This document shows, piece after piece, positions 13,120-62,761 of a stretch of 64,000 nt of DNA. Origin of the DNA: a virus (taxonomy: Duplodnaviria > Heunggongvirae > Uroviricota > Caudoviricetes). The position numbers were made by a program, and so were the translations under genes. The notes under the pieces are model-generated. The model was given only the letters and a program-made list of their open reading frames with translations, ran no database searches and was not told where the DNA came from. Location: the IMG/VR virus record IMGVR_UViG_3300042484_000872, positions 48,338 to 112,337 of that record. One strand, given 5' to 3'. Positions within the stretch are counted from its first letter, which is position 1, and each line of letters opens with the position of its first letter.

Positions 13120-14091
13120 TTATACAGAAGCTAGCTTTTTAGTTTTCAATTTACCTTCTAATACTAATAACTCATCTTGGTTATCATCATCAGCTAGGAA
13201 TCTAATTAAATCTTCCTCATCTTTAGCTATTTCAAATTCACCTTCATAAACCTTACCGTTTGGTTTGATTCTATACACTGAATGTGCTACAGCTTGTTTT
13301 ACTAAATCTTTTATATGGAGTAAGGCTTCTTTCATATCTGCAAATCTATTGAACACTTCAACTGGACTCAATCCTGAATATTTACCATTCTTGAATTCTG
13401 TTTGTTTCAATACATTATCTACTAAGTTATAAACCACTTCTTCTTTTGTTTCTTCTGTTACTGGAAGACCTAAAAGTCTTGCAACTTTTTTCTTCTTCTC
13501 AGGACTCATAGAATCAAACTTAACAATAGCTTTATTAATTAATTGTTTTTTCTTGAAGATCACTGCGTTCTCAATCTCATCATCTACAACATAAAATTGT
13601 GTATCTGCTGCAAATTCTCCTCTTTCCCAAGCTTGATATGAACTTGCAATTGTTGGATGAACTCTTAACCATGAAAAAGCTATTTCTTGAAAAGCATTTG
13701 ATAGATCAAAATAGTTATCACCATCTAATAGTTTAACTACTTGTACGTGTGTTTGATCATCTGTAGAAGTTGATAAACCATAGTTCCAGAATTGTGAACG
13801 AGGTCCTAAATCAATATCCCCTATCTCATTTTCAAGTTTTATTTTAAGAGCTCTCACTCTTTCAATCTCTAATTCTTTTTCTAAAGGATCTTGGATTCTT
13901 TTAATGTACGTAGCATTTTCATCTAATCCTGTTCTGTACTTTCCATCTAATTCTTTATAAGGATATTTGAATACTCCTGTTCCAGGGATTCTTGTCATTC
14001 CTTTTTGTGATAGTCCACTATCCATTGTTTGAAGTTGAGCACTATTTGTATAGTCTCTCTTAATAGTAGAAATTTTTCCTGTCTTACCCAT
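13120..14091 (-). CDS. hypothetical protein
   Basis: 323-aa ORF, operon context. Confidence 0.5.
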   Translation of the reverse strand: MGKTGKISTIKRDYTNSAQLQTMDSGLSQKGMTRIPGTGVFKYPYKELDGKYRTGLDENATYIKRIQDPLEKELEIERVRALKIKLENEIGDIDLGPRSQFWNYGLSTSTDDQTHVQVVKLLDGDNYFDLSNAFQEIAFSWLRVHPTIASSYQAWERGEFAADTQFYVVDDEIENAVIFKKKQLINKAIVKFDSMSPEKKKKVARLLGLPVTEETKEEVVYNLVDNVLKQTEFKNGKYSGLSPVEVFNRFADMKEALLHIKDLVKQAVAHSVYRIKPNGKVYEGEFEIAKDEEDLIRFLADDDNQDELLVLEGKLKTKKLASV

Positions 14092-14125
14092 AATGTAGTT
14101 AAATTTAATAATTGGTTTTAATTTG

Positions 14126-14200
14126 TTGCGTGGGTTGGACTCGAACCAACGACCTCTAGGTTATGAGCCTAGCGAGCTAACCAACTGCTACTACCACACG
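14126..14200 (-). tRNA. tRNA-Met (CAT), initiator-like
   Basis: Reverse complement CGTGTGGTAGTAGCAGTTGGTTAGCTCGCTAGGCTCATAACCTAGAGGTCGTTGGTTCGAGTCCAACCCACGCAA. Anticodon loop CTCATAA, T-arm GTTGG-TTCGAGT-CCAAC, C1/A72 mismatch and A11:U24 as in bacterial tRNA-fMet. Strongly resembles E. coli tRNA-fMet by eye. Acceptor stem by hand alignment; D-stem pairing imperfect; no encoded CCA. Needs tRNAscan-SE/ARAGORN. Confidence 0.6.
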
Positions 14201-14412
14201 ATTTAGTAGAGTGGTTCCACCGAAGGAACCTGAACATGGATACTATCCATTTCAACACTCTGACACTTAGTTACGTTGCTATGCAAGAGGCTTGACTAAG
14301 TATGTTTGAGAATCATCCCCTCTAGGAGGGAGAGGAGTTGAGGGGAATCATCTCGGAAAAAAGAGATGTATGCTGTTCTATAATGGGAAGCAGTACATCT
14401 TCAATTTCATTA

Positions 14413-15975
14413 TTAGAATTGTGGCATTTCCTCAATCAACACAGTTCTAGACAAATCTTCAATAAATACATCACATCTGTCTTTCATCCAGATTTCGTAT
14501 CCTGGGAATTTATTAGCAGAGCTCATACCTTGAGATTTAGCAAAACCTAAGTGATGACGAGTTCCATCAATATAACCCCAAGTCATAGAAGGAGCACCTT
14601 TCATACGTACTTCTCTAATGTTGTTTACCATTGAACCATCAGACATTGGAGAAACATCAAACACCATAAATACAGGCGTAGATTTTTTGTTTTGTCCAAA
14701 CTCTAAGTTAGATTGTGGTAAATCTAATTCTTTTAAGTGAATCAATTCAACTCTACCAGTCTCACGAGTTACCATTGCATCAAATGCAAAGTTGTAAGTG
14801 ATATGTTGTCCTTCACCTTGCATGTATCTGTTTCCAGAATCAGCCATGAAAGTAAGACCTGAATTTAATGCATCTGTTTTCAAAGCTTGTTGGAATACAT
14901 CGAATCCAGCTTCATTAGTATACATTTTTACACTTCTATCTTTCACATCCACTCTTCTGTAGAATAAATCTCCAAATACAGAACGGATTAAGTTAGCAGA
15001 GAATTCACCTCTGTTATATTGTACCAAGTTTCCATTGTTACGCATTCTGTGATATACACCAGCAGATGTTCTTTTCAATTCTTGTTTAGAACCTCCAGAT
15101 TTAACTGTACCTGGTTTAGCCCAGATCATACGTTTAACTTTCAATTCAATCATTGACTTACGCATCCAGAATTCAATAAACGGTTCCCATTTAACATCAT
15201 TACGTGTAAGTGGTAATTGGTTACGTCTTTGTGGAGCATATACCAAAATGTCTAATGGTTTACCAGAAGCATCTCTCATCATTTTGTCATCAGCCCATTC
15301 TGTGATTTTGTGCTCATATCCATATGCAGAACCTAATGATTCAAACATTGTGATTTGCTCACCTAATCTTGGAAGACCTAATAAATCTTGATCAAACTCA
15401 CCAATAGCTGCATCAACTAATTCTAGTTCTACACCATATTGTAAGAATACAGGATTAACAAAATCAACTTGTGGATTATCAGTTACTAATGTAAATGAAT
15501 ACAAGTATCCCATATTCCAAGGTAATGGATCTTTGATCACGTAGAAACGTGGACCATATTGACGTGTACCTACAGAGATGATAGCATTTTTAGAAAACTC
15601 ATTAGTATCTAATACTAATTGGAATTCTTGACCATCGATACCTGTTTTACCAAGATCAATTAAATCTTGTGTAGAAGAAGGAATGTCAATAATTTTTGGG
15701 AATTTGTAAGGAACTGCTACTTGCCATTTCCATGCATCACTATTATTATCAATATAATAAGGTGTGCTTTTGTTGATCATGTCTAAGAAGTCATTACTGT
15801 AAAGTGAGCTCTGTGTATAAAGACTGATGATTTTTTTATCATAGTCTGCAGGCTCAGTAGAGTGAAAACTCTCTAAGTGGTTAGAGTCTGTTAGTTTTCC
15901 TACTGCACGTTTGTCCATAGACGCTACACGAGCATAAGTAAAACCAGTTAACCCAGGAATTGTTTGAATTGCCAT
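14413..15975 (-). CDS. putative major capsid protein
   Basis: 520-aa ORF directly downstream of the scaffold-like gene in a portal-scaffold-capsid order. No motif-level confirmation. Confidence 0.4.
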   Translation of the reverse strand: MAIQTIPGLTGFTYARVASMDKRAVGKLTDSNHLESFHSTEPADYDKKIISLYTQSSLYSNDFLDMINKSTPYYIDNNSDAWKWQVAVPYKFPKIIDIPSSTQDLIDLGKTGIDGQEFQLVLDTNEFSKNAIISVGTRQYGPRFYVIKDPLPWNMGYLYSFTLVTDNPQVDFVNPVFLQYGVELELVDAAIGEFDQDLLGLPRLGEQITMFESLGSAYGYEHKITEWADDKMMRDASGKPLDILVYAPQRRNQLPLTRNDVKWEPFIEFWMRKSMIELKVKRMIWAKPGTVKSGGSKQELKRTSAGVYHRMRNNGNLVQYNRGEFSANLIRSVFGDLFYRRVDVKDRSVKMYTNEAGFDVFQQALKTDALNSGLTFMADSGNRYMQGEGQHITYNFAFDAMVTRETGRVELIHLKELDLPQSNLEFGQNKKSTPVFMVFDVSPMSDGSMVNNIREVRMKGAPSMTWGYIDGTRHHLGFAKSQGMSSANKFPGYEIWMKDRCDVFIEDLSRTVLIEEMPQF

Positions 15976-17398: not shown

Positions 17399-17424
17399 CC
17401 TCCTCCGAAGAGGAGAAGTTTTTT
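17399..17424. terminator. stem-loop CCTCCTC-cgaa-GAGGAG followed by TTTTTT; T-rich flank on the minus strand too
   Basis: Lies between the portal stop (17423) and the scaffold start (17280). Possible attenuator or bidirectional terminator. Confidence 0.3.
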
Positions 17425-20008
17425 AACCTTTTTTGTTATTTCTGCCTTTAGCGTTCTCTTTTGCAACAGCAAGATCGTTTGCCATATTCTCTCTAGCCAC
17501 TTGTAGTTTCTCTTTTTCTACAGACATTTTATCGCTAGCTTGTTTATTCTTAGATTGAATATCAGCCATCTTTAATCCATAATCTTTTGTAGCTGTATCT
17601 TGATCGTGAGCTAACCTACTCATTTCCATTACATCAGGAATAGCATTTGCATTTACATCTTCTGATTCAACATTACCAAATCCTGTAGCTTGTATAATAG
17701 CAATCTTCTCTTTAGATAGTCTATCAAGTTCTTTTTGGTAATCATCATGAGCCAATTGCTCTTGGTGTTGTTGGATGAGGAACTGTTGTTGAGCTTGTGC
17801 TTGTTGTTGTTGAGCTTCTTGCTGTTGTTGAGCAAGTTGTTGTTGTTGCTCTTGTTGAGCAATTTGTCTATCTCTAAGATCTTTAAATACCTTCTTAAGT
17901 TCTCTTTGAGACTTAGTAGAATACAATTCTATTACATCATAAAGCGTGCCACCATTTTGAATAATAGCTTGAGAAAGTTGTCTAAGTTCATTAAACATTT
18001 GTGTATCTTCTGGTCTGTTTGTTAAGAACACTTTTAAGTCACGAAATTTAAGATCTGACCCATTTACTTGTACAAATGCAGATTGTCCCTCAGAGGTCAC
18101 ATATGAAAGCGTAGACTGAGGTTTTGATGATTCTACATAAAGAGCAGCATCTATAATACTTTGATACAGCTGTCCAAGCACATACTCGTGAGCTACAAAA
18201 AGAGGCTCTGTTTGAGAGTAACTCTGCTGCATCGCAGTATTAGTTCCTGTTGCACTTTCAGAAGCAGATACACTTCCCATACGTTGTTTAGACATACCTA
18301 CAAGTTCCCAGCATTCAAGTTTCACTTGCTGAGCTAATGTATATCTAGATTGTATCTCCTGTGTACGTGTAAGATCAAGAGCTGTAAATTGATTAAATGA
18401 ACTAGGACTCTTTAGATTCTCAGGACTATCATCAATAAATACCACTCCTCTGTTACGTGCTTCCATTTCCCATATATCAAGAGCATCTTGTGCATCTCCA
18501 TCTTTAGGAATAGGAATGTGTCTTAATGACATAAGCTGAACCTTACCCACTTCTTTCTCAAGTAGTTTGTATAATTGGTTCATACATACATTATAAATTA
18601 CTTGGAAAGGTTTCATAAGATCCACTAAGCTTTTTGCTTCTGTATTCTTCACCTCAAATGTTGTACCTATAATAGGACAATAGTTTAATAACTTAAATGG
18701 TTTGATATGATAGATATCTGGACCAATCTTTGTTCCTTGATACCATTCATTAATCCATCCCCATTCTAATGATTGTTGTGTAGGTATAGTACCTGATTTA
18801 TATGATTCATCAACAAGTGTAGATTGCTCATTACCCATTTCATCTATATAAATTAACTTACCAATTTTCTTTTTAGATATCCAATAGCTTCTTACAACAA
18901 CATACTTATATCCAAATGAGCTTACATTATTAGTAAGACCTAAGAAATCTTTTAGTCCATCATTGTTTTCTTTCATCTCTGATTCAATGATCATACGTGT
19001 CTGTAGAACAAGTGGATCAAATGTATCATACATTACAGAGTCTTGTCCTGGAACAGCATCTGGATTACCAAGGTTTGATTCTCTAACATTAATCAATCCG
19101 TAATCTTGTAAAGATGATCTAAGGTGATCTATTTCTTCTTTTGTAAGATCTGGTATAGATTCAATAATCTCAGATAATTCCATAACTTGCACAGTACCAG
19201 CAGCATATGCTCCTTGAGCTCTACCTGTAGGATCTGATATGTATTTTCTATCTGGTGTACTTAAGAACCATGTGTTCTTTGGATTAGCTACTTCAACATT
19301 AAATCCAAGTTTAGAATTGTCTTCATATATATGATAGAATTCTCTAGCAGATATTAACATATCTCTAAATGCATCCTCACTCTTTTCTTTAATATTAAAC
19401 TCAGCTTTCTGACATGTAAGAACATGGTTGGCCCATTTCTCAGCTATAGATGTATAGCTATCTAACTCATCCTTAACCTGTTCCATTGTCATTTGTTGCA
19501 ATTGCTCTGGATCAATTTCTTCTCCTTGCATTGCAGCTTTTTCTGTCAACTGTTGTTTAACTTGATTGATTACATATTCTTGTAACGTATCTGTTTTGAA
19601 CTGAAGCTCTTCTGCTTTACTATCATCATCAAAAGCTTTCACTCTAAATGTATCAGGTCTCTTTGATATTTCACCAACGAGCTCATTAACAGGAGTGGTG
19701 ATGATTGAATACATCTTTACATAAGCAGGAAGAGCTAAGTCTCCTGTAAGTACATCTGTAAAGCTTCTTACCTCTGGTTCTTGATAGAAATCTTCCATAC
19801 GAAGAATTCCTTTCATAAGATCGTAATTAGGAACAAAGGTGTCTCTGTTCTTTATATACTCAGCATATGCTTTATTGGAGAAATAATCCATCGTATTTTT
19901 AATCCAACTCTCATCTTGTTTTTCCTTATCTGTTTTGAATTGATCAGGAAAGATGTTTAAGTATGCATACCTAATAGTAGCATCTTTTGTATATCTAATT
20001 ATTGCCAT
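17423..20008 (-). CDS. putative portal protein (Gln-rich coiled-coil C-terminus)
   Basis: 861-aa ORF immediately downstream of TerL. C-terminal QQEQQQQLAQQQQEAQQQQAQAQQQ tract. Assigned by gene order. Confidence 0.5.
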   Translation of the reverse strand: MAIIRYTKDATIRYAYLNIFPDQFKTDKEKQDESWIKNTMDYFSNKAYAEYIKNRDTFVPNYDLMKGILRMEDFYQEPEVRSFTDVLTGDLALPAYVKMYSIITTPVNELVGEISKRPDTFRVKAFDDDSKAEELQFKTDTLQEYVINQVKQQLTEKAAMQGEEIDPEQLQQMTMEQVKDELDSYTSIAEKWANHVLTCQKAEFNIKEKSEDAFRDMLISAREFYHIYEDNSKLGFNVEVANPKNTWFLSTPDRKYISDPTGRAQGAYAAGTVQVMELSEIIESIPDLTKEEIDHLRSSLQDYGLINVRESNLGNPDAVPGQDSVMYDTFDPLVLQTRMIIESEMKENNDGLKDFLGLTNNVSSFGYKYVVVRSYWISKKKIGKLIYIDEMGNEQSTLVDESYKSGTIPTQQSLEWGWINEWYQGTKIGPDIYHIKPFKLLNYCPIIGTTFEVKNTEAKSLVDLMKPFQVIYNVCMNQLYKLLEKEVGKVQLMSLRHIPIPKDGDAQDALDIWEMEARNRGVVFIDDSPENLKSPSSFNQFTALDLTRTQEIQSRYTLAQQVKLECWELVGMSKQRMGSVSASESATGTNTAMQQSYSQTEPLFVAHEYVLGQLYQSIIDAALYVESSKPQSTLSYVTSEGQSAFVQVNGSDLKFRDLKVFLTNRPEDTQMFNELRQLSQAIIQNGGTLYDVIELYSTKSQRELKKVFKDLRDRQIAQQEQQQQLAQQQQEAQQQQAQAQQQFLIQQHQEQLAHDDYQKELDRLSKEKIAIIQATGFGNVESEDVNANAIPDVMEMSRLAHDQDTATKDYGLKMADIQSKNKQASDKMSVEKEKLQVARENMANDLAVAKENAKGRNNKKG

Positions 20009-20009
20009 G

Positions 20010-22040
20010 TTATCTAAACAATTTATTTTTTGGTGTGTTAAACATTGATCTGCTTTCTGTAAACAGTCTATTCAGTTTGTTCTTTTTGAACATTGATTGT
20101 ATTCTTACATCTTGCTCTCCTCCTATTTTTCCCATGATGGGATCTAGTTTCATTGCTAAAGCTATTGCTAACTCAGCTGCAATGATTCTATCAAAGTTAC
20201 CTGATTCATTATATTGGATCATCTCTTCAAGAAGAACAGGATCAAATATCTTGGCCATACCTTTTGTCTCAGACTTAATGTTTCCATCTTCATCCTTCTC
20301 TGTATGTATCACTTCTTCTGTATACTTCTTAAGACATCCGTGTAAGAAGTCTCGTATTTTCTCAGAAGATCTATGTATTCCGTAATCCCTTCTTACTGTG
20401 GTGTTTGGAACAATCTCTTTCAACCAATCTGGTTGTCTCTCTAAATAATGTGCATCTCCTTTAGCTATCATGTAGTCAATAAAAGATATTTCATCATTCT
20501 CACATAGAGCTCTAGCATTATAATACTTGATTAAGTATCTAGCTTGTTCTTCCCATGTTTCTTTCTTCTCTGGTCTAGCACAATAACTAGCTACAAACAT
20601 ATCTTGATACTTCTCTCCTGATATAGCATGCATACGTTTGTATATGTATACAGATCCTAATGAACTTGAATATGCAGATTTACCTTGTCTATAAGGGTCA
20701 ATCCCTGCAACATATAATCCATATGGAGGAGATTCAACAGGGAACTCATATATCACTACAGGAGCTTCTTTGTTATCACTATTCTTAAGTGGGAAGTTTG
20801 ATATAGGCACCTTATCACTAAACTCATGTTTTACACCATCACCATCATCATATAAAACAACAGGTGTTCCTGTTCTTTCTTGTGCTAATAGTCTGGCTTT
20901 CTGACGTTTAGATGCTTCAATATCAAATATGTTCGTATCCTCATTTAAGAATATATCATCCACTTCTTGTGGGTAATACATCTTCTCTTTTAAATAAGCT
21001 AGTCTATCACCAGCTTTCTTTAATCTGTCAAGGTTATCATTTGTAATCTTATCTGCTTTCTCTTCATTAGATACTAACATCTTTACATTATGTAATTCTG
21101 ATTCTGCTGGTTGTTCAAGATAGGCTCCAAGTGTAGAGTCTTCCTTAGCTTCCATTCTATACTTATGTGAGATGAATAGTCCATGGATTCTTTGATCATC
21201 CTTTGCACTATTATATTCCAGGAAGTTGAAATTGGCTACATCAAACATTAAGCTTTTTGCATCCATGAAATTCTGCATATCTCCACCTGTACCTGTAAGT
21301 ATAGGCGAACATCCCCAACCAAATGGTGTGGTGAAACCTGGTGTAGCTGCTTGTAATCCTCTAAGGAAATTACCCTTACCTATCTCATCAATAATAAGCC
21401 TTCTAGGTTTTGTACCTGCAATAGCCTCTTCATTATTACCACCATCTAAGTTACGAATAAGGATCTGAGAAAAGGGGATTCTCTCTCCTGCTTTTGTCTT
21501 GATCCCTAATGTAACTTGGTTTTTCCAGTTGTCTTCCACCCTCTGCCATCTCCAGGCTTCAGGTAGGAAGTTTAATCCTTTGTCAATCTTATCTGTGATA
21601 AGCTTTATATCGGGAGCATTCAATCCTGCTATAATGTTTTGGGAATTCTCATCGAATGTTGCCCCATGACCTATGTAGGAACTCTCAATTACTGACTTAG
21701 CTAAACGACGAATGCCTAATATTACTAGGCCTTTCTTTTCGTTGTGTGCTCTATCTATTTCATTTGTTATAATCCACTCATTATCACGTAGATATGGATT
21801 AGCATATTTTTGATTAATCCTTCCACGATCATCTATAATATCCACCTCTGTATTCCAGAAGTTTAAATGCCAATATAGAAAAGGGTTAATATATACTCCT
21901 CCCATTGTACAGCCATCAATACATAGTTGTTTATGGAAAGCATAAAATGCTTTATACTCTTCTGAATCCTTTGATGGAACTCTCTTTTGATTGATAAACC
22001 AATCTCCGTATTCAATACTCTGTAAGCCATCGATCATCAT
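20010..22040 (-). CDS. terL: terminase large subunit
   Basis: Deviant Walker A LGIRRLAKS (gp17-like), Walker B LIIDEIG, C-terminal nuclease-like VAGIDPYRQG (catalytic Asp). 676 aa. Confidence 0.7.
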   Translation of the reverse strand: MMIDGLQSIEYGDWFINQKRVPSKDSEEYKAFYAFHKQLCIDGCTMGGVYINPFLYWHLNFWNTEVDIIDDRGRINQKYANPYLRDNEWIITNEIDRAHNEKKGLVILGIRRLAKSVIESSYIGHGATFDENSQNIIAGLNAPDIKLITDKIDKGLNFLPEAWRWQRVEDNWKNQVTLGIKTKAGERIPFSQILIRNLDGGNNEEAIAGTKPRRLIIDEIGKGNFLRGLQAATPGFTTPFGWGCSPILTGTGGDMQNFMDAKSLMFDVANFNFLEYNSAKDDQRIHGLFISHKYRMEAKEDSTLGAYLEQPAESELHNVKMLVSNEEKADKITNDNLDRLKKAGDRLAYLKEKMYYPQEVDDIFLNEDTNIFDIEASKRQKARLLAQERTGTPVVLYDDGDGVKHEFSDKVPISNFPLKNSDNKEAPVVIYEFPVESPPYGLYVAGIDPYRQGKSAYSSSLGSVYIYKRMHAISGEKYQDMFVASYCARPEKKETWEEQARYLIKYYNARALCENDEISFIDYMIAKGDAHYLERQPDWLKEIVPNTTVRRDYGIHRSSEKIRDFLHGCLKKYTEEVIHTEKDEDGNIKSETKGMAKIFDPVLLEEMIQYNESGNFDRIIAAELAIALAMKLDPIMGKIGGEQDVRIQSMFKKNKLNRLFTESRSMFNTPKNKLFR

Positions 22041-31479: not shown

Positions 31480-31713
31480 TTTGATTAATTATTTGGTTTG
31501 TTACTCCCTGTAGATTATATTTGCAGGGATATTGTATAATCACTGGGGACTATAAACGCCACATAGCAGTTTAAATAGTCAATGTATGTGCTGCGTATCA
31601 TTGAACTTACCTATATTATGCATATTATGAGTTTAGAACTCACTAGAGTGATACAAAAAGAATAGGGAAGCTGAAAACTATATAGAGTAGGTACAAAATT
31701 AAACCAATGAACA

Positions 31714-31896
31714 ATGAAGTATCTAATAAGTATAGTCTTTACGTTCTTATCTGTATTAGCCTTTATGAAACTATTGTTTCTATTGAATAAGGGCAATACT
31801 GTTGCAAATGTTTTTGCTATAGTAGGTATATTCTTATTGGGATATATAATTGCAAGAACAAAGTTATTTACACAATTAAAATCAAAGAAAAAATGA
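31714..31896 (+). CDS. small membrane protein
   Basis: 60 aa, hydrophobic, overlaps the lipoprotein start by 4 nt. Confidence 0.3.
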   Translation: MKYLISIVFTFLSVLAFMKLLFLLNKGNTVANVFAIVGIFLLGYIIARTKLFTQLKSKKK

Positions 31897-32738
31897 AAAA
31901 AGTAGTATTATTAGGAGCATTAGTTGCTATGTTTGCAACATCATGTACAACAGCTGACTCAAGTGAAGTGGCATTAGTGGTAGATCAAATTGGAAATGAT
32001 AAGGGAATTCCAAACATTCAAATGGAATCAGGATTCATATTCTATTTCCCACCAACACAAGATGTATACACCTATCCAACATCTGTACAACATAAAGTGT
32101 GGAGTGCAGACAATCAAGAAGGATCAGAAACAGATGAGCACATTGATGTAACATCATCAGATGGAGCTACATTTGGTCTTGATGTATCTATAAACTTACA
32201 ATTACAAAGAGCTAAGGCATCAGAGTTGTTTATAAAATACAGAGTGGACATGGATGAGTTGATACATACAAGAGTAAGAACTATTGTTAGAAAAGAATTA
32301 TTAGATAATGCTGTTAACTTTGCATCAGATAGTCTTTTACAACATAGAAATATATATGAGGCCAATGTAACTAAGACATTAACATTATCATTAGAGAAAG
32401 AAGGATTCACATTGAATAACATTGCTGTATTAAAGATGGCATTACCATCATCATACAAGAAAGCTATTGAAAGAAAGATTGCTGTGTTACAAGAAACAGC
32501 AACTATCATCTCTCAGACTAAACAAGCTGAACAAACAGCATTGAAGAAAGTGGCATTAGCTAAGGGTAATTACGAAGCAGCACAATATGATGCTAAGACA
32601 AAAGAAATCTTATCACAACCTAAGCTTCTTGAATTATACAGAGCAGAAACAGAAAGAGTATGGGCAAATAAAGGCAGATCTCCATATGGTTCTAATAATG
32701 TATTTGGTTCTGCATCTGGAATTCTTTTAAATAGATAA
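31893..32738 (+). CDS. lipoprotein, SPFH/band-7-like
   Basis: Signal peptide with lipobox MKKVVLLGALVAMFATSC. The rest has prohibitin/HflC-like helical segments (weak, by eye). Confidence 0.5.
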   Translation: MKKVVLLGALVAMFATSCTTADSSEVALVVDQIGNDKGIPNIQMESGFIFYFPPTQDVYTYPTSVQHKVWSADNQEGSETDEHIDVTSSDGATFGLDVSINLQLQRAKASELFIKYRVDMDELIHTRVRTIVRKELLDNAVNFASDSLLQHRNIYEANVTKTLTLSLEKEGFTLNNIAVLKMALPSSYKKAIERKIAVLQETATIISQTKQAEQTALKKVALAKGNYEAAQYDAKTKEILSQPKLLELYRAETERVWANKGRSPYGSNNVFGSASGILLNR

Positions 32739-33048
32739 TTGCACAGTGGTCCTACATCCACACACATTAAACTTGTAGGATTGGTCTCTGATGTTAGGGA
32801 ACACTTGTGAGTTGCAATGATAAAACTCTCAAACAGGCTAAACATTGAACCAGATAGTGCATGAGGCCCATGCTACGAGTAACTATCAAAGATACTATCA
32901 GTAATGGTAGTTGGATGTTATGATGAATGGTGCTCTCTATGACAATTTGCACATAGGAGCACACATTTATCTAATTCAATTTTAAGATTATTAATATAAA
33001 TGCTTGGTACTAATCATTTTTATTTGTACATTTGTAAAAAATATTATT

Positions 33049-33534
33049 ATGTGGAAACAAATAGAAGACTATGATTATGAAATAAATCCTGAAGGAATAG
33101 TAATGAGAATTTCAACTAAAAGAATTAAAAAATCTTTTAAAAGACCTGATGGATACATTGGTATTCAATTGTACAAATCTAAAACAGAGATTAAAAACTT
33201 TCAGTTACATAGATTAATAGCAATTGCATTTATTAATAATCCTGAAAACAAAGACATTATTAACCATAAAGATTCAAATAGAGAAAACAATTCTTTAAAT
33301 AATCTTGAATGGGTAACAAAAAAAGAAAATGACAAACATGCTTATGAATTTGGTAATGCTTCAAACAAAGGTTCTAAAAATGGTTTTTCTGTATTAACAG
33401 AAGAACAAGTATTGAAAATAAGAAAAAAAAGAGCAGAAAATAAACTAACTTATCAAAAATTAGCAGAGTTGTATAATGTTTCTTACGGTTGTATTGCAGG
33501 TATAATACAAAGAACAAATTGGAAACATATTTAA
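33049..33534 (+). CDS. HNH homing endonuclease (HNH_3 / NUMOD4-type)
   Basis: MWKQIEDYDYEINPEGIV... start context, HRLIAIAF, INHKDSNRENNSLNNLEWVTKKEN. Start moved to Met-16 of the track ORF. Confidence 0.6.
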   Translation: MWKQIEDYDYEINPEGIVMRISTKRIKKSFKRPDGYIGIQLYKSKTEIKNFQLHRLIAIAFINNPENKDIINHKDSNRENNSLNNLEWVTKKENDKHAYEFGNASNKGSKNGFSVLTEEQVLKIRKKRAENKLTYQKLAELYNVSYGCIAGIIQRTNWKHI

Positions 33535-34169
33535 AATAATCTAAACCCTGACAGAAACTGTATAGTAATATATAGAATGGATATAGCTGTATGAGATATG
33601 CTATTATGTACCATTGGGAGTTCTCAGCAAGTAGTTAATCAGGTGTGAGTTCAGTAATCCTCCCAATTACACATCGAAAGGAGGTAATTAACTACGTGAC
33701 CCTACTCTTATATCTAACAATCGTAATTGATTTGCAGAAACAATAGTACATAAGAACAGACTATAAGAAAGAGGGTGCTAAACAATATTTAAAGCTCGAG
33801 GCTCAATCATTTGATTTGAGCACGCTACCTCGGACTATGATAAGTGTCCTCACATGAGGAATTTGGGCTCGACTGGAATTGACTGGTTATTATAGATTAT
33901 ACAATTCAGCCAGAGAGATAACTGTAAACTAAGGTGAATTATTTTAAATGGCAAAAACACAAGTCGTGTAGTGGCTCTAGGAGCAAACGCACAAATCGAA
34001 GCTAATATGAACAAAGTATTCTCATTATTAAATGAGGATGTAATCGTTGGTTTAGCAGCCTAAATTACCTCAAGATTTCTCTATTAGATTAAATAGAGTG
34101 GTGGGAACGTTAAGCCTAGCTTGACCCTAAATAAGCTGTATAAAATTGTATTTTTGAAGTAAGCAACAC

Positions 34170-34194
34170 GAGGGTTCGAATCCCTCCGAGTCCA
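34170..34194 (+). other. orphan tRNA 3' fragment (T-arm GAGGG-TTCGAAT-CCCTC + acceptor 3' strand CGAGTCC-A)
   Basis: Canonical T-arm read directly. No complementary 5' acceptor strand (GGACTCG) anywhere upstream. Confidence 0.35.
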
Positions 34195-34215
34195 CTGATT
34201 ACCAGTTAGTTAAAT

Positions 34216-34326
34216 GATTGAGTGGCGGAATTGGTAGACGTTATGTTATGTACAGATACTAAGCAGAAGTGAGATTGCTGTACTAAGCTCACATCCTGAA
34301 TACAGGTTCGAATCCTGTCTCAATCA
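34216..34326 (+). tRNA. tRNA-like gene, class-II-type D-arm, ~20 nt longer than a canonical tRNA; anticodon not assignable by eye
   Basis: 5' GATTGAG pairs perfectly with 3' CTCAATC. D-arm TGGCGGAATTGGTAGACG, T-arm ACAGG-TTCGAAT-CCTGT, discriminator A. The middle 60 nt contains a duplicated ACTAAGC and stems GTACAG/CTGTAC and GTGAG/CTCAC. Confidence 0.4.
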
Positions 34327-34547
34327 CAGCAGTTACTTGACGCAAATAGCACAGTAACAGACATTGGATAGTTTGCACATCACGAATGTTAAGTCCTTTC
34401 CACGCAGAGAAGGAGTTGAGTACTTATAGGGAAGAAATGTTCCTAATCTCAACAATTGACATCTCCCAAGGGAGAAGGTCCTATTAAAGCCTCTATTAAC
34501 ATAGGGGCTTTTCTTATTATGTATTAATCCTTAATAACTAAATAACA

Positions 34548-45340: not shown

Positions 45341-46153
45341 ATGTTATATCTTTGTCATATGAAAATAGATATAGCCCTTAGAAAAGTGACTGGTATATAT
45401 AAAATTACCAACACTATAAACAATAAATCATATGTAGGAAGTTCTGTTGATGTATATCAAAGAGGATGTATGTATAAGCACTTAATCAAAAGAAAGAAGT
45501 TACATAACAAACATTTACAGTCAGCTGTAGAGAAGTATGGATATGATAATTTTACATTTGAAGTCTTAGATAAGTGTGAAGAAGGTACATCTGTTTTTGA
45601 TTTGCATCAATTAGAACAATCTTACATAAACAAAATTAATCCTGAGTACAATAAAAGAACTGTTGTAGACACAAATCATTTACTTTCACATTCTCAAGAA
45701 ACTAAAGATAAAATATCTAATAGTTTGAAAGAATCTTTTAAGAATGGTAGTAAAGTTATCAATCGTATACAAGAACATAATATAAAAGTTAGTCTATTTG
45801 ATCTATCTGGAAATCATATTCAAGATTTTCCAGGATTAGCTCATTGTGCTGATTTTGTAGGAGTGAAGTATCAGAGCGTAACTTTTGCTATAAACAGTGA
45901 AAGAAGAAGAGTTAAGAATTACATAGTGCTACGTACAGAGGAATCTAATTTGGTAAAAGATTTTCTAAACATACCTAAATTAAATTATGCTAAAAAAGTT
46001 ACAGTTCTAGATATAATTACAAATGAGACATTACAATTTATTAATTGTAAACTGTGTGCAGAATTTATAAATTGTAAACCAACAACTGTAAAAAAATGTT
46101 ATGAGAATGGTAAAATTTGGAAAAACAAATACAAAATAATAAACTATGAGTAA
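45341..46153 (+). CDS. GIY-YIG homing endonuclease
   Basis: GIYKITNTINNKSYVGSS...R...KHLQSAVEKYG...FEVL...E. Alternative start at 45359. Inserted between the helicase fragment and the intact helicase gene. Confidence 0.65.
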   Translation: MLYLCHMKIDIALRKVTGIYKITNTINNKSYVGSSVDVYQRGCMYKHLIKRKKLHNKHLQSAVEKYGYDNFTFEVLDKCEEGTSVFDLHQLEQSYINKINPEYNKRTVVDTNHLLSHSQETKDKISNSLKESFKNGSKVINRIQEHNIKVSLFDLSGNHIQDFPGLAHCADFVGVKYQSVTFAINSERRRVKNYIVLRTEESNLVKDFLNIPKLNYAKKVTVLDIITNETLQFINCKLCAEFINCKPTTVKKCYENGKIWKNKYKIINYE

Positions 46154-48013: not shown

Positions 48014-48886
48014 ATGAGTAGTATCGGAGGAAAGAAAAGAGAGAACACAGGAAGTGGTGATTCAGTAAAGAAAGTAGGATTGTTCGAAGCAAACATTATT
48101 GCTATCAATCCAACAATTGAAGAGTATAAAGACAAGCTTGGTATTGATCTTAAAGAAGACAGCAAAGCTGCTGAGTATTTAGGTGAGACTAAAGATGGGA
48201 ACAGTTATGTTCGTTTAGATTTTTGGTTACAGAAAGTTAATACTACAGATAATTATAAAGTTAGCTTTTTCTTAGAAGATAAAGAACGTGAGAACAAAGA
48301 TGGAACTAAGAAACAATATATCAATTCTATTGGTATGTGTTCTTGGGCAGGAGATGAAAATGATCTAGCTGAATGGTTCACAAAAGGAAGAGATTTCAGA
48401 GTGGCGTATACAGGAGAAGAAGATCTTTACAACTTCATGAGAACATGGTTAGCTGATCTTGATTATCGTGATGCAGAAACTGTTCTACAATTAGAATGGA
48501 AGAAGTTGATGAGAGGTAATATAAAAGACATTAAAGACCAAATTGGTGGAGAATGGGCTAAATCTGTTATTGCTCTTGCTACTGTTATTGTTAAAGAAAG
48601 AGATGGAGATTCTAAAGAGTATCAAGGTATCTATAATAAAGCCTTCTTAGGTGGATATGCATTGAAACAATTTAGACTTGTTGATTATGGAGACAGAAGA
48701 GTACAAGAGGGTCTTAAAAACAAGAAACCAAAAGATTTGAAAGCACACGAGAAATTCGTAGTGAATGTTATAGGTGAATATGGTTGTAAAGACTATTATA
48801 CACTAAAGGACCTACAGGATTATAATGCAGATGACAATTTAGTTGCTTCTGATGCATATATTTCTGAAGATGGTGACGATTATTAA
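48014..48886 (+). CDS. hypothetical protein with acidic C-terminal tail (SSB-like?)
   Basis: Ends SEDGDDY, i.e. acidic tail with a terminal aromatic as in phage ssDNA-binding proteins; sits between ATPase and primase genes. Weak. Confidence 0.3.
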   Translation: MSSIGGKKRENTGSGDSVKKVGLFEANIIAINPTIEEYKDKLGIDLKEDSKAAEYLGETKDGNSYVRLDFWLQKVNTTDNYKVSFFLEDKERENKDGTKKQYINSIGMCSWAGDENDLAEWFTKGRDFRVAYTGEEDLYNFMRTWLADLDYRDAETVLQLEWKKLMRGNIKDIKDQIGGEWAKSVIALATVIVKERDGDSKEYQGIYNKAFLGGYALKQFRLVDYGDRRVQEGLKNKKPKDLKAHEKFVVNVIGEYGCKDYYTLKDLQDYNADDNLVASDAYISEDGDDY

Positions 48887-61705: not shown

Positions 61706-62761
61706 ATGGCAAAAAAAGCAGTGGCTAAAGAAACTAATAACAAGTTTCAAGAAGCAATGGACAAATTGAACAAGACTTATGGTGTTGGTTCAATATTAGC
61801 GTTAGATTCTAAAGCAGGAGGAGATTATGATGTAATCAGTACAGGTAGTATTGGTTTTGATCACATCACTCTTGGTGTAGGAGGATTTGTAAAGGGAAAA
61901 CTCTATGAACTTATGGGCTGGGAGGGCACAGGTAAATCTACAATATGTGGACATGCTGCAGCTGAATGCCAGAAGAAAGGTGGAACTGTTCTATATATCG
62001 ATGGTGAGCATGCTGTTGATAAGAGCTATTTCAAGAAATTAGGTGTAGATACTACTAAGATGTTAATCTCTCAACCATCTTGTGGTGAGGAAGGATTCAA
62101 CATTGCAATGGAAATGATCAACACTGGAGAGATAGATCTTGTAATCATAGATTCAGATTCATCTCTTATACCTAAGAAGATGCTTGATGGTGATGTAGGA
62201 GACTCTACAATCGGTAGAAAAGCTTTATTGAATAGTAATGCCTATCCAAAGCTTAAAGGTGCTCTATCACAACATAATGTATGTGTAATTGTAATCTCTC
62301 AATACAGAGAGAAGATTGGTGTTATGTTTGGTAATCCTACTACTACACAAGGTGGTCATGCTCTTAAATTCTACAGTGATGTAAGAATAGAAGTGTCTAG
62401 AAGTTTAGCTAAAGATGGTGATGTAACTTATGGTAATATCACTAAGCTAAAAGCTATCAAGAACAAAATGTCTCCTCCATATAGAAAATCAGAGTTTGAA
62501 ATTGTTTATGGATTAGGTATAGACAAACTTGATGAGATGATGAGTCTTCTTAATGAGTTTGAACTAGGACGTAAGTATGGTAAAACTATGACTGTAGATG
62601 GAACTAAGTATGACTTAGAAGAATTCAAACAGTTAGTAATAGATAATCCAGAGTTCTATGATGAACTAAAAGAGAAGATTGTAGCTGCAATTAATCAAAC
62701 TGATCTTCCTATAGAGGAAGTAGAAGTTGAAGAGGATGTTGTTGTTCCAGTATCAAGTTAA
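61706..62761 (+). CDS. recA: RecA-family recombinase
   Basis: GKLYELMGWEGTGKSTICGHAAAE...LYIDGEHAVDKSYFKKLGVD...LVIIDSDSSL parallels RecA GRIVEIYGPESSGKTT...FIDAEHALD...LGVD...VVDSVAAL. Confidence 0.75.
   Translation: MAKKAVAKETNNKFQEAMDKLNKTYGVGSILALDSKAGGDYDVISTGSIGFDHITLGVGGFVKGKLYELMGWEGTGKSTICGHAAAECQKKGGTVLYIDGEHAVDKSYFKKLGVDTTKMLISQPSCGEEGFNIAMEMINTGEIDLVIIDSDSSLIPKKMLDGDVGDSTIGRKALLNSNAYPKLKGALSQHNVCVIVISQYREKIGVMFGNPTTTQGGHALKFYSDVRIEVSRSLAKDGDVTYGNITKLKAIKNKMSPPYRKSEFEIVYGLGIDKLDEMMSLLNEFELGRKYGKTMTVDGTKYDLEEFKQLVIDNPEFYDELKEKIVAAINQTDLPIEEVEVEEDVVVPVSS

Follow-up and report, generated by a model that had tools for sequence, protein, structure and literature searches.

A phage-borne tRNA-Met of the bacterial initiator type, carried as an exchangeable cassette behind the capsid gene of an uncultured freshwater phage

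The late operon and its tRNA gene

The window analysed here is a stretch of 64,000 nucleotides (positions 48,338 to 112,337 of IMG/VR record IMGVR_UViG_3300042484_000872) from an uncultured freshwater phage of ~112 kb and ~32% G+C. According to ARAGORN, the window contains one canonical tRNA gene, a tRNA-Met(cat) on the minus strand, which is co-oriented with a late operon comprising genes for the large terminase (20010-22040) and the portal (17423-20008), one unassigned open reading frame (ORF), the major head gene, the tRNA region, and virion and tail genes (Table 1). The tRNA gene lies 212 nt downstream of the major head gene, inside an intergenic region of 321 nt. An earlier note on this DNA, made from its letters and ORFs, had placed an initiator-type tRNA-Met here, between the capsid gene and downstream structural genes, and had proposed tRNAscan-SE or ARAGORN as a check. 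The ARAGORN part of that check returned the tRNA, and Rfam family RF00005 matches it at 41.9 bits, above the gathering score of 29, with E = 1.7e-5 over the whole window; the note's coordinates were right although it left the strand unsaid, and the flanking genes are as it described, a major head gene upstream and virion and tail genes downstream.

Table 1. The tRNA gene, its parts and its neighbours in the late operon (coordinates in the window; contigs of related phages are designated L with a number)
Feature	Coordinates	Strand	Basis or remark
tRNA-Met(CAU), initiator type, 76 nt	14125..14200	-	ARAGORN; Rfam RF00005; covariation in 14 alleles
Acceptor stem, 5' strand, CGUGUGG	14194..14200	-	Sequence; 1:72 unpaired in 14/14 alleles
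D arm	14174..14191	-	Rfam alignment (U as insert); same insert in L129, L013, L016
Anticodon arm, CUAGG-CUCAUAA-CCUAG	14156..14172	-	Sequence
T arm, GUUGG-UUCGAGU-CCAAC	14134..14150	-	Sequence; both partners changed in 3/5 pairs across alleles
Acceptor stem, 3' strand, CCACGCA (14133-14127), and discriminator A73 (14126)	14126..14133	-	Sequence
Major head (capsid) protein gene	14413..15975	-	PHROG 11589, E = 1.8e-32; directly upstream of tRNA, co-oriented
Next late-operon gene, 323 aa, PHROG 16383	13120..14091	-	Starts 33 nt after tRNA
Three-way-junction RNA element (AGAGUG...CACUCU)	14208..14261	-	Conserved; ends 7 nt before tRNA
Hairpin, then U run, just after capsid stop codon	14357..14402	-	Sequence and fold

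In RNA sense, with tRNA nucleotide i at window position 14201-i, the 5' half of the tRNA reads CGUGUGG-UA-G[U]AGC-AGUUGGUUA-GCUC-G and the 3' half reads CUAGG-CUCAUAA-CCUAG-AGGUC-GUUGG-UUCGAGU-CCAAC-CCACGCA-A-C. The gene does not encode CCA, its 3' end being ..GCA-A-C-AAAU. In the acceptor stem, C1 (14200) stands opposite A72 (14127), with which it is unable to pair, and G2:C71, U3-G70 and G4:C69 follow. The D arm consists of G10 (14191), an extra U (14190), A11-G12-C13 (14189-14187), the loop AGUUGGUUA with G18 and G19, and G22-C23-U24-C25 (14177-14174). The extra U, between G10 and A11 in the 5' strand of the stem, is an insertion in the Rfam alignment, and relatives without it have a regular D stem, GAGC/GCUY; the irregular D stem reported by the earlier note is therefore real, but the U10/C25 mismatch by which it was described is better read as this one extra nucleotide. 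The anticodon CAU occupies 14165-14163, and its stem has A29:U41, G30:C40 and G31:C39 (au/GC/GC). The residues of the tertiary interactions, read from the sequence, are all intact (U8, A14, G15/C48, G18 and G19, and U54, U55 and C56).

Conservation of the tRNA structure among alleles

Fourteen distinct alleles of the window's tRNA type, taken from the same site in related IMG/VR contigs, were aligned. In alleles whose D or variable loops are shorter, MAFFT placed gaps wrongly, and unpaired loop positions were padded with N before pairs were counted. The standard cloverleaf pairs 94.9% of cells over the 14 alleles, and in 11 of its 21 pairs both partners have changed; values as high were reached in none of 500 shuffles, and structures slid by 1-3 columns pair 28-48% of cells. 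Pairing is far beyond chance, and the tRNA gene is under selection for tRNA structure. While its stems change by compensatory substitutions, three features are fixed in all 14 alleles: position 1 never pairs with position 72 (CxA or AxA), and A11:U24 and G30:C40 are invariant. The pairs on either side of G30:C40, 29:41 and 31:39, vary or covary, giving anticodon stems of au/GC/GC (window), GC/GC/au (the commonest allele), au/GC/au, ua/GC/GC and au/GC/cg. Hypermutation of the type caused by diversity-generating retroelements was ruled out as a source of the divergence, the changes being compensatory in stems and not restricted to A positions.

Probable initiator identity

The window tRNA carries the features by which methionyl-tRNA synthetase (MetRS) recognises its substrates, the CAU anticodon and discriminator A73, but not the G1:C72 and Y11:R24 of elongator tRNA-Met and tRNA-Ile2. 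In their place are the C1xA72 non-pair and A11:U24, an initiator-type purine:pyrimidine pair, both of which the earlier note had seen. C11:G24 is found in E. coli metT, metU and ileX and in gt017 of Cellulophaga phage phi4:1, and G1:C72 accompanies it in the three E. coli genes and in the phi4:1 elongator. Of the determinants of the formyltransferase, G2:C71 is present and position 3:70 is U-G instead of C:G.

Sequence comparison points the same way as these features. All 5,426 E. coli genomes searched by blastn match the tRNA, at a median of 4 places each, and the strongest of these matches lies between mltA and amiC, in the metZ/metW/metV cluster, annotated as 'tRNA-initiator Met' in the K-12 record. 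Identity is 78% to metZ, 68% to the elongator genes metT and metU, and 67% to ileX; of the two Met tRNAs of phi4:1, the initiator-like one (A1xC72, A11:U24) is 82% identical and the elongator 76%. The resemblance to tRNA-fMet that the earlier note had asserted is thus borne out. With the E. coli initiators metZ/metW/metV/metY the window tRNA shares CAU in a CUCAUAA loop (also as noted earlier), C1xA72, G2:C71, A11:U24, A73, G30:C40 and G31:C39, a variable loop of AGGUC and a T loop of bacterial type that begins UUC. It differs from them in A29:U41 (G29:C41 in E. coli), in U3-G70 (C3:G70), in the extra D-stem U, and in being phage-borne, dispensable and without an encoded CCA. A match of the T arm and 3' end to E. 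coli, also claimed earlier, holds for the CGCAAC end but not for the T arm, where the loop is UUCGAGU against UUCAAAU and the stem GUUGG/CCAAC against GUCGG/CCGGC.

Only two G:C pairs at 29-31/39-41, 30:40 and 31:39, had been counted earlier, and correctly, 29:41 being A:U. The absence of a G:C pair at 29:41 does not exclude the tRNA from the initiators, because au/GC/GC is documented in bona fide members. Such initiators occur naturally in mycoplasmas and alpha-proteobacteria, a '1st AU' mutant is among those that sustain E. coli, and of the three pairs it is the middle G:C that is essential in E. coli (Shetty et al. 2016/17, PMC5389676). This middle pair is the one held at G:C in the window and in 14/14 alleles. 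The organisms with au/GC/GC have it in sole chromosomal initiators that co-evolved with their own ribosomes, whereas the phage tRNA would be an extra copy on a host ribosome, and the phage family goes beyond them in having alleles with GC/GC/au, au/GC/au and ua/GC/GC. The three fixed features (1:72 non-pair, A11:U24, G30:C40) match the minimal initiator defined experimentally in E. coli. A phage-borne tRNA-Met of the bacterial initiator type, located between capsid and structural genes, is therefore supported on comparative grounds.

Exchange of the tRNA gene among related phages

Capsid protein matches identify more than 599 relatives of the phage in IMG/VR, on contigs of up to 111-119 kb. 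The presence of the tRNA gene was surveyed in the best 80 of these (major head protein at least 94% identical), of which 79 include the downstream gene. A tRNA is found at the site in 33 of the 79 evaluable relatives and is absent from 46. Absence takes the form of a clean gap, in which the upstream element ending ...CACUCUACUAAAU joins the AAAUUAAACCAA leader of the next gene directly. Lbo-JY46, a Leptolyngbya phage that is the closest cultured relative, also has no tRNA after its capsid gene.

The tRNAs at the site fall into several unrelated types, all without a 1:72 pair. Type A, the window's own, has a CGUGUGG acceptor and A11:U24. Type B (L003/L004) has U1xU72 and type C (L045/L048/L070) G1xA72, and both have a full GGG/CCC stem, a 3-nt variable loop, a 49x65 mismatch and U11:A24, which departs from the purine 11:pyrimidine 24 feature. 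Type D (L021/L062) has A1xA72 and, after G10, an additional nucleotide in an unusual D arm. A type-D allele at 6161-6235 of L054 (also in L055 and L236) adjoins an HNH gene and has the anticodon CGU in a UUCGUAA loop, with A1xA72 kept; it may simply be a dead mutant, or something stranger, for instance an initiator for codons other than AUG.

Different tRNA types occur in phages with 99-100% identical capsid proteins, and between the window and L002, the capsid gene is 99.5% and the downstream gene 97.5% identical at the DNA level, but the tRNA just 87.7%. An HNH endonuclease ORF of 119-148 aa (motifs EFDH...CANCH) occurs in the same intergenic region (L017 5885-6331, L054 5803-6162, L043 5874-6308), downstream of the tRNA, upstream of it, or where there is no tRNA at all, and marks the site after the capsid gene as a hotspot for homing endonucleases. 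The tRNA gene is an accessory, swappable cassette that recombines freely among closely related phages, and as such it fits a conditional, host-dependent benefit more readily than a general demand for additional initiator tRNA.

The extra D-stem nucleotide and related tRNAs in other phages

The extra U was found in 15 of 80 viral tRNAs that share the window's anticodon arm and in none of 41 bacterial ones; in two larger viral sets it was found in 5/113 and 12/123 tRNAs. It occurs in at least five unrelated backgrounds of acceptor and T stem in IMG/VR, and is apparently a tolerated, phage-associated variant rather than a one-off lesion, as far as these sequences indicate. An annotated tRNA-Met of Sinorhizobium phage phiM12 (KF381361 95631-95707; L246 56-132) has the same extra U (UA-GUAGC-...-GCUC), together with U1:A72 and the anticodon stem ua/GC/cg.

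The exact 27-nt anticodon arm is present in 81 IMG/VR contigs and in 41 stretches over 185,579 species genomes, and it is carried by bacterial initiators of, among others, Propioniciclava, Omnitrophota and Planctomycetes. Just 2 of 236 distinct viral tRNAs that share this design of D stem and anticodon arm have G:C or C:G at 1:72. In a further comparison, au/GC/GC was found in 32 viral contigs and GC/GC/GC in 18 (L250-L296) with an otherwise identical flanking pattern, a ratio that depends strongly on the pattern chosen; this hints that phage initiator-like tRNAs are enriched for au/GC/GC, although the ratio is not reliable, since with broader patterns each of the two stem forms gave at least 120 matches.

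In blastn of the intergenic region against cultured phages, the tRNA alone matches 119 records. Six cultured-phage tRNAs were read in detail, those of Stenotrophomonas phage QDWS359 (annotated tRNA-fMet), crAss-like phage cr60_1, Sinorhizobium phage phiM12, Mycobacterium phage Myrna, Pectobacterium phage CBB and Vibrio phage phi-Grn1; in all of them A11:U24 and G30:C40 are present and the 1:72 pair is weak or absent, and au/GC/GC is found in several. The same design, often with au/GC/GC, is shared by the initiator-like tRNA-Met of phi4:1 (gt012), vB_Sm_QDWS359, Myrna, cr60_1, CBB and phiM12, and the anticodon arm of gt012 is identical to that of the window tRNA. Initiator-like Met tRNAs, some with the extra U, are already known in many cultured and uncultured phages, and the class is annotated in many phage genomes, mostly as plain 'tRNA-Met'. 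The window tRNA stands alone after a capsid gene, whereas most of these cultured-phage tRNAs belong to multi-tRNA clusters, including gt012 and those of large phages such as CBB, Myrna and phiM12. It also differs from most of the cultured cases in that its site has the tRNA present, absent or replaced among near-identical phages.

Neighbouring RNA elements

The intergenic region holds other structured elements besides the tRNA. The three-way junction at the upstream edge of the insertion site has a sequence-invariant outer helix and two inner hairpins that covary, one with a UUCRRU loop; found with or without a tRNA, it adjoins the tRNA but is not part of it. The hairpin and U run that follow the capsid stop codon look like a leaky intrinsic terminator, in which case the tRNA would be made by read-through, although the hairpin was not called by a consensus terminator scan. 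The consensus scan for promoters and terminators, which excludes Bacteroidota-type promoters, gave nothing usable on the minus strand. A second hairpin (14308-14354, minus strand), 3' of the terminator-like element, is kept in every relative examined, whether or not a tRNA follows; its pyrimidine-rich (CU-rich) loop, ACUCCUCUCCCUCCU, holds CCUCC motifs that resemble an anti-Shine-Dalgarno sequence. A permissive Rfam scan of the intergenic region matched only the tRNA and no ribozyme, so the structured elements upstream belong to no known family.

The phage and other features of the window

The phage has no close cultured relative, since searches of cultured phages with the 4.5 kb around the tRNA (megablast) and with the intergenic region (blastn) both gave the tRNA itself as the only match. 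At the protein level, the terminase shares 40% identity with its counterpart in Leptolyngbya phage Lbo-JY46, 31% with that of Cellulophaga phage phi4:1 and 25-27% with those of crAss-like phages, and Flavobacterium phages match as well; the capsid protein matches that of Lbo-JY46 alone among cultured phages (26%). The phage is distantly related to the crAss-like and phi4:1-like phages. The terminase relatives infect Bacteroidota, plus one cyanobacterium, and the host is probably a member of the Bacteroidota.

A transfer-messenger RNA (tmRNA) gene on the plus strand (33865-34197; Rfam 49.9 bits against a threshold of 47), for which ARAGORN gives the tag ANAQIEANMNKVFSLLNEDVIVGLAA, is closely preceded by an HNH endonuclease ORF (33004-33534) and followed after 19 nt by a tRNA-like gene (34216-34327, plus strand). 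In the latter, the acceptor, D and T arms are good (Rfam tRNA 36.9 bits), but 54 nt stand in place of the 17-nt anticodon arm, and the minimum free energy (MFE) fold is no better than shuffles; ARAGORN reports it in intron mode only, as Ala(UGC) with an intron of 25 nt and a variable arm that is long, a doubtful call. A DUF805b RNA motif (31661-31693, plus strand; 36.7 bits, threshold 35.6) precedes an SPFH/Band-7 family gene (31893-32738) by ~200 nt. The replication module encodes a GIY-YIG/NUMOD1 homing endonuclease (45341-46153, plus strand) and a bacterial-type RecA (61706-62761, plus strand; Pfam RecA 286.9 bits); with the two HNH genes added, the genome seems to be well supplied with functions for homing and recombination.

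Proposed function and alternative explanations

The gene quite probably encodes a functional initiator tRNA of the tRNA-fMet kind, as an optional accessory gene in the late structural operon. It would be transcribed with the capsid gene, or by read-through from it; host RNase P would cut the 5' end, the 3' end would be trimmed, and, since CCA is not encoded, the CCA-adding enzyme of the host would supply it. The host MetRS would charge the tRNA by way of CAU and A73, the host formyltransferase would act on it by way of the 1:72 non-pair, G2:C71 and A11:U24, and initiation factors IF2 and IF3 would place it in the P site of the 30S subunit by way of G30:C40 and G31:C39. Its purpose is the least certain part of the proposal: the tRNA may sustain initiation capacity late in infection, during bulk synthesis of capsid protein, or may substitute for a host initiator tRNA that is depleted or attacked. 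The boost to late structural-protein translation that the earlier note expected is suggested by the position of the gene only.

The second of these purposes has parallels. Cleavage of tRNA-fMet by VapC is reported (Winther and Gerdes 2011). Phage tRNAs have been interpreted as a counter to depletion of host tRNAs and to anticodon nucleases (van den Berg et al. 2023, PMC10264068). The window tRNA is like such counter-measures in being a phage copy of a toxin-targeted tRNA, with alleles that differ in the anticodon stem beside the loop. It is unlike them in that, according to the same paper, tRNA-fMet is as a rule missing from the tRNAs that phages carry where it is a target of VapC; a defence against host nucleases is thus no more than a possible rationale for it.

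Several observations weigh against a functional initiator. Over half of the close relatives have no tRNA gene, and the phage life cycle can therefore proceed without it; that 46 of 79 forgo it argues that any boost to translation is dispensable. The strict set of three G:C pairs (29:41, 30:40 and 31:39) is incomplete, and pair 3:70 is an invariant U-G in the 14 alleles where the formylation determinant in E. coli is C3:G70. The extra D-stem U is non-standard in tRNA and could impair folding or recognition; the D arm is poor in ARAGORN's drawing, and the MFE fold of the single sequence departs from a cloverleaf (z = -1.35), although the latter result is uninformative, as it usually is for an unmodified tRNA sequence. 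Lastly, a Pfam search of the 20 larger plus-strand ORFs of the early/replication region found no gene for a translation-related protein, whether formyltransferase, deformylase, CCA-adding enzyme or initiation factor.

Some of these points could be taken to mean that the family is a genuine initiator family but that the window allele is a decaying copy, made non-functional by the extra U and on its way to loss. The insert does disrupt the regular 4-bp D stem, is found in just four family members (the window, L129, L013 and L016) against more than 40 with a regular stem, and sits in a gene that 46 relatives do without. Decay is nevertheless improbable: the remainder of the tRNA is intact, with every tertiary-pair position included, alleles with the insert differ from each other by compensatory changes (CUAGG/CCUAG in the window, CAAGG/CCUUG in L013), and recurrence of the insert in at least five unrelated backgrounds and in the cultured phage phiM12 is a persistence unexpected of a lethal defect. 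Much less credible still is an elongator tRNA-Met, or a tRNA-Ile2 with C34 modified to lysidine, that decodes AUG or AUA during elongation. ARAGORN's label is just 'tRNA-Met', the CUCAUAA loop is common to all three CAU classes, and a phage of 32% G+C could in principle favour AUA codons; but 1:72 is unpaired in all 14 alleles, where metT, metU, ileX and the phi4:1 elongator have G1:C72 with C11:G24, and the identity values favour metZ over metT and ileX. A 1:72 non-pair disfavours binding by EF-Tu, which counts further against elongation. TilS recognises C4:G69 and C5:G68 in E. coli tRNA-Ile2, in place of which the window has G4:C69 and U5:A68.

Equally hard to credit is a tRNA-shaped processing signal (tRNA punctuation), at which cuts by RNase P or RNase Z would part the capsid mRNA from the downstream cistrons and stabilise it. 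The location in a long, highly structured intergenic region with further conserved RNA hairpins would suit this, as would the exact size of the insertion. A processing signal needs no set anticodon, 1:72 non-pair, A11:U24 or G30:C40, yet all four are conserved; several unrelated tRNA types occupy the site, all with CAU, and the same operon is kept in relatives without a tRNA. Processing would happen in any case, and is compatible with a functional initiator. A speculative and unlikely extension would make the site an arms-race locus, where unrelated initiator-tRNA cassettes are exchanged with the help of HNH endonucleases and each variant evades a different attacker yet remains able to initiate. 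The attackers, on this doubtful view, would be VapC-like nucleases or AtaT-like acetylases of hosts or competing elements, and the variation that might serve escape would lie in position 1:72 (CxA, AxA, UxU, GxA), in the stems (au/GC/GC, GC/GC/au, au/GC/au) and in the extra D-stem U. If such an arms race were real, the extra U, seen here only in viral tRNAs, would be an escape feature, and the allele whose anticodon is CGU might even be a sign of initiation at codons other than AUG.

Implications for phage-encoded tRNAs

As an example of its class, the gene is ordinary; its interest lies mainly in its behaviour as a cassette and in the natural series of 'minimal initiator' alleles. Compensation for codon usage cannot explain an initiator tRNA in a phage, because AUG has no synonymous codons, and with an initiator as the only canonical tRNA in 64 kb, this phage offers a clean case for other ideas about phage tRNAs, namely sustained initiation after host shut-off and replacement of a targeted host tRNA. 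The alleles amount to a natural mutational series in which just the 1:72 non-pair, A11:U24 and G30:C40 are fixed, and the presence, absence and replacement of the tRNA among phages with near-identical capsids would provide ready-made isogenic comparisons once a host is found.

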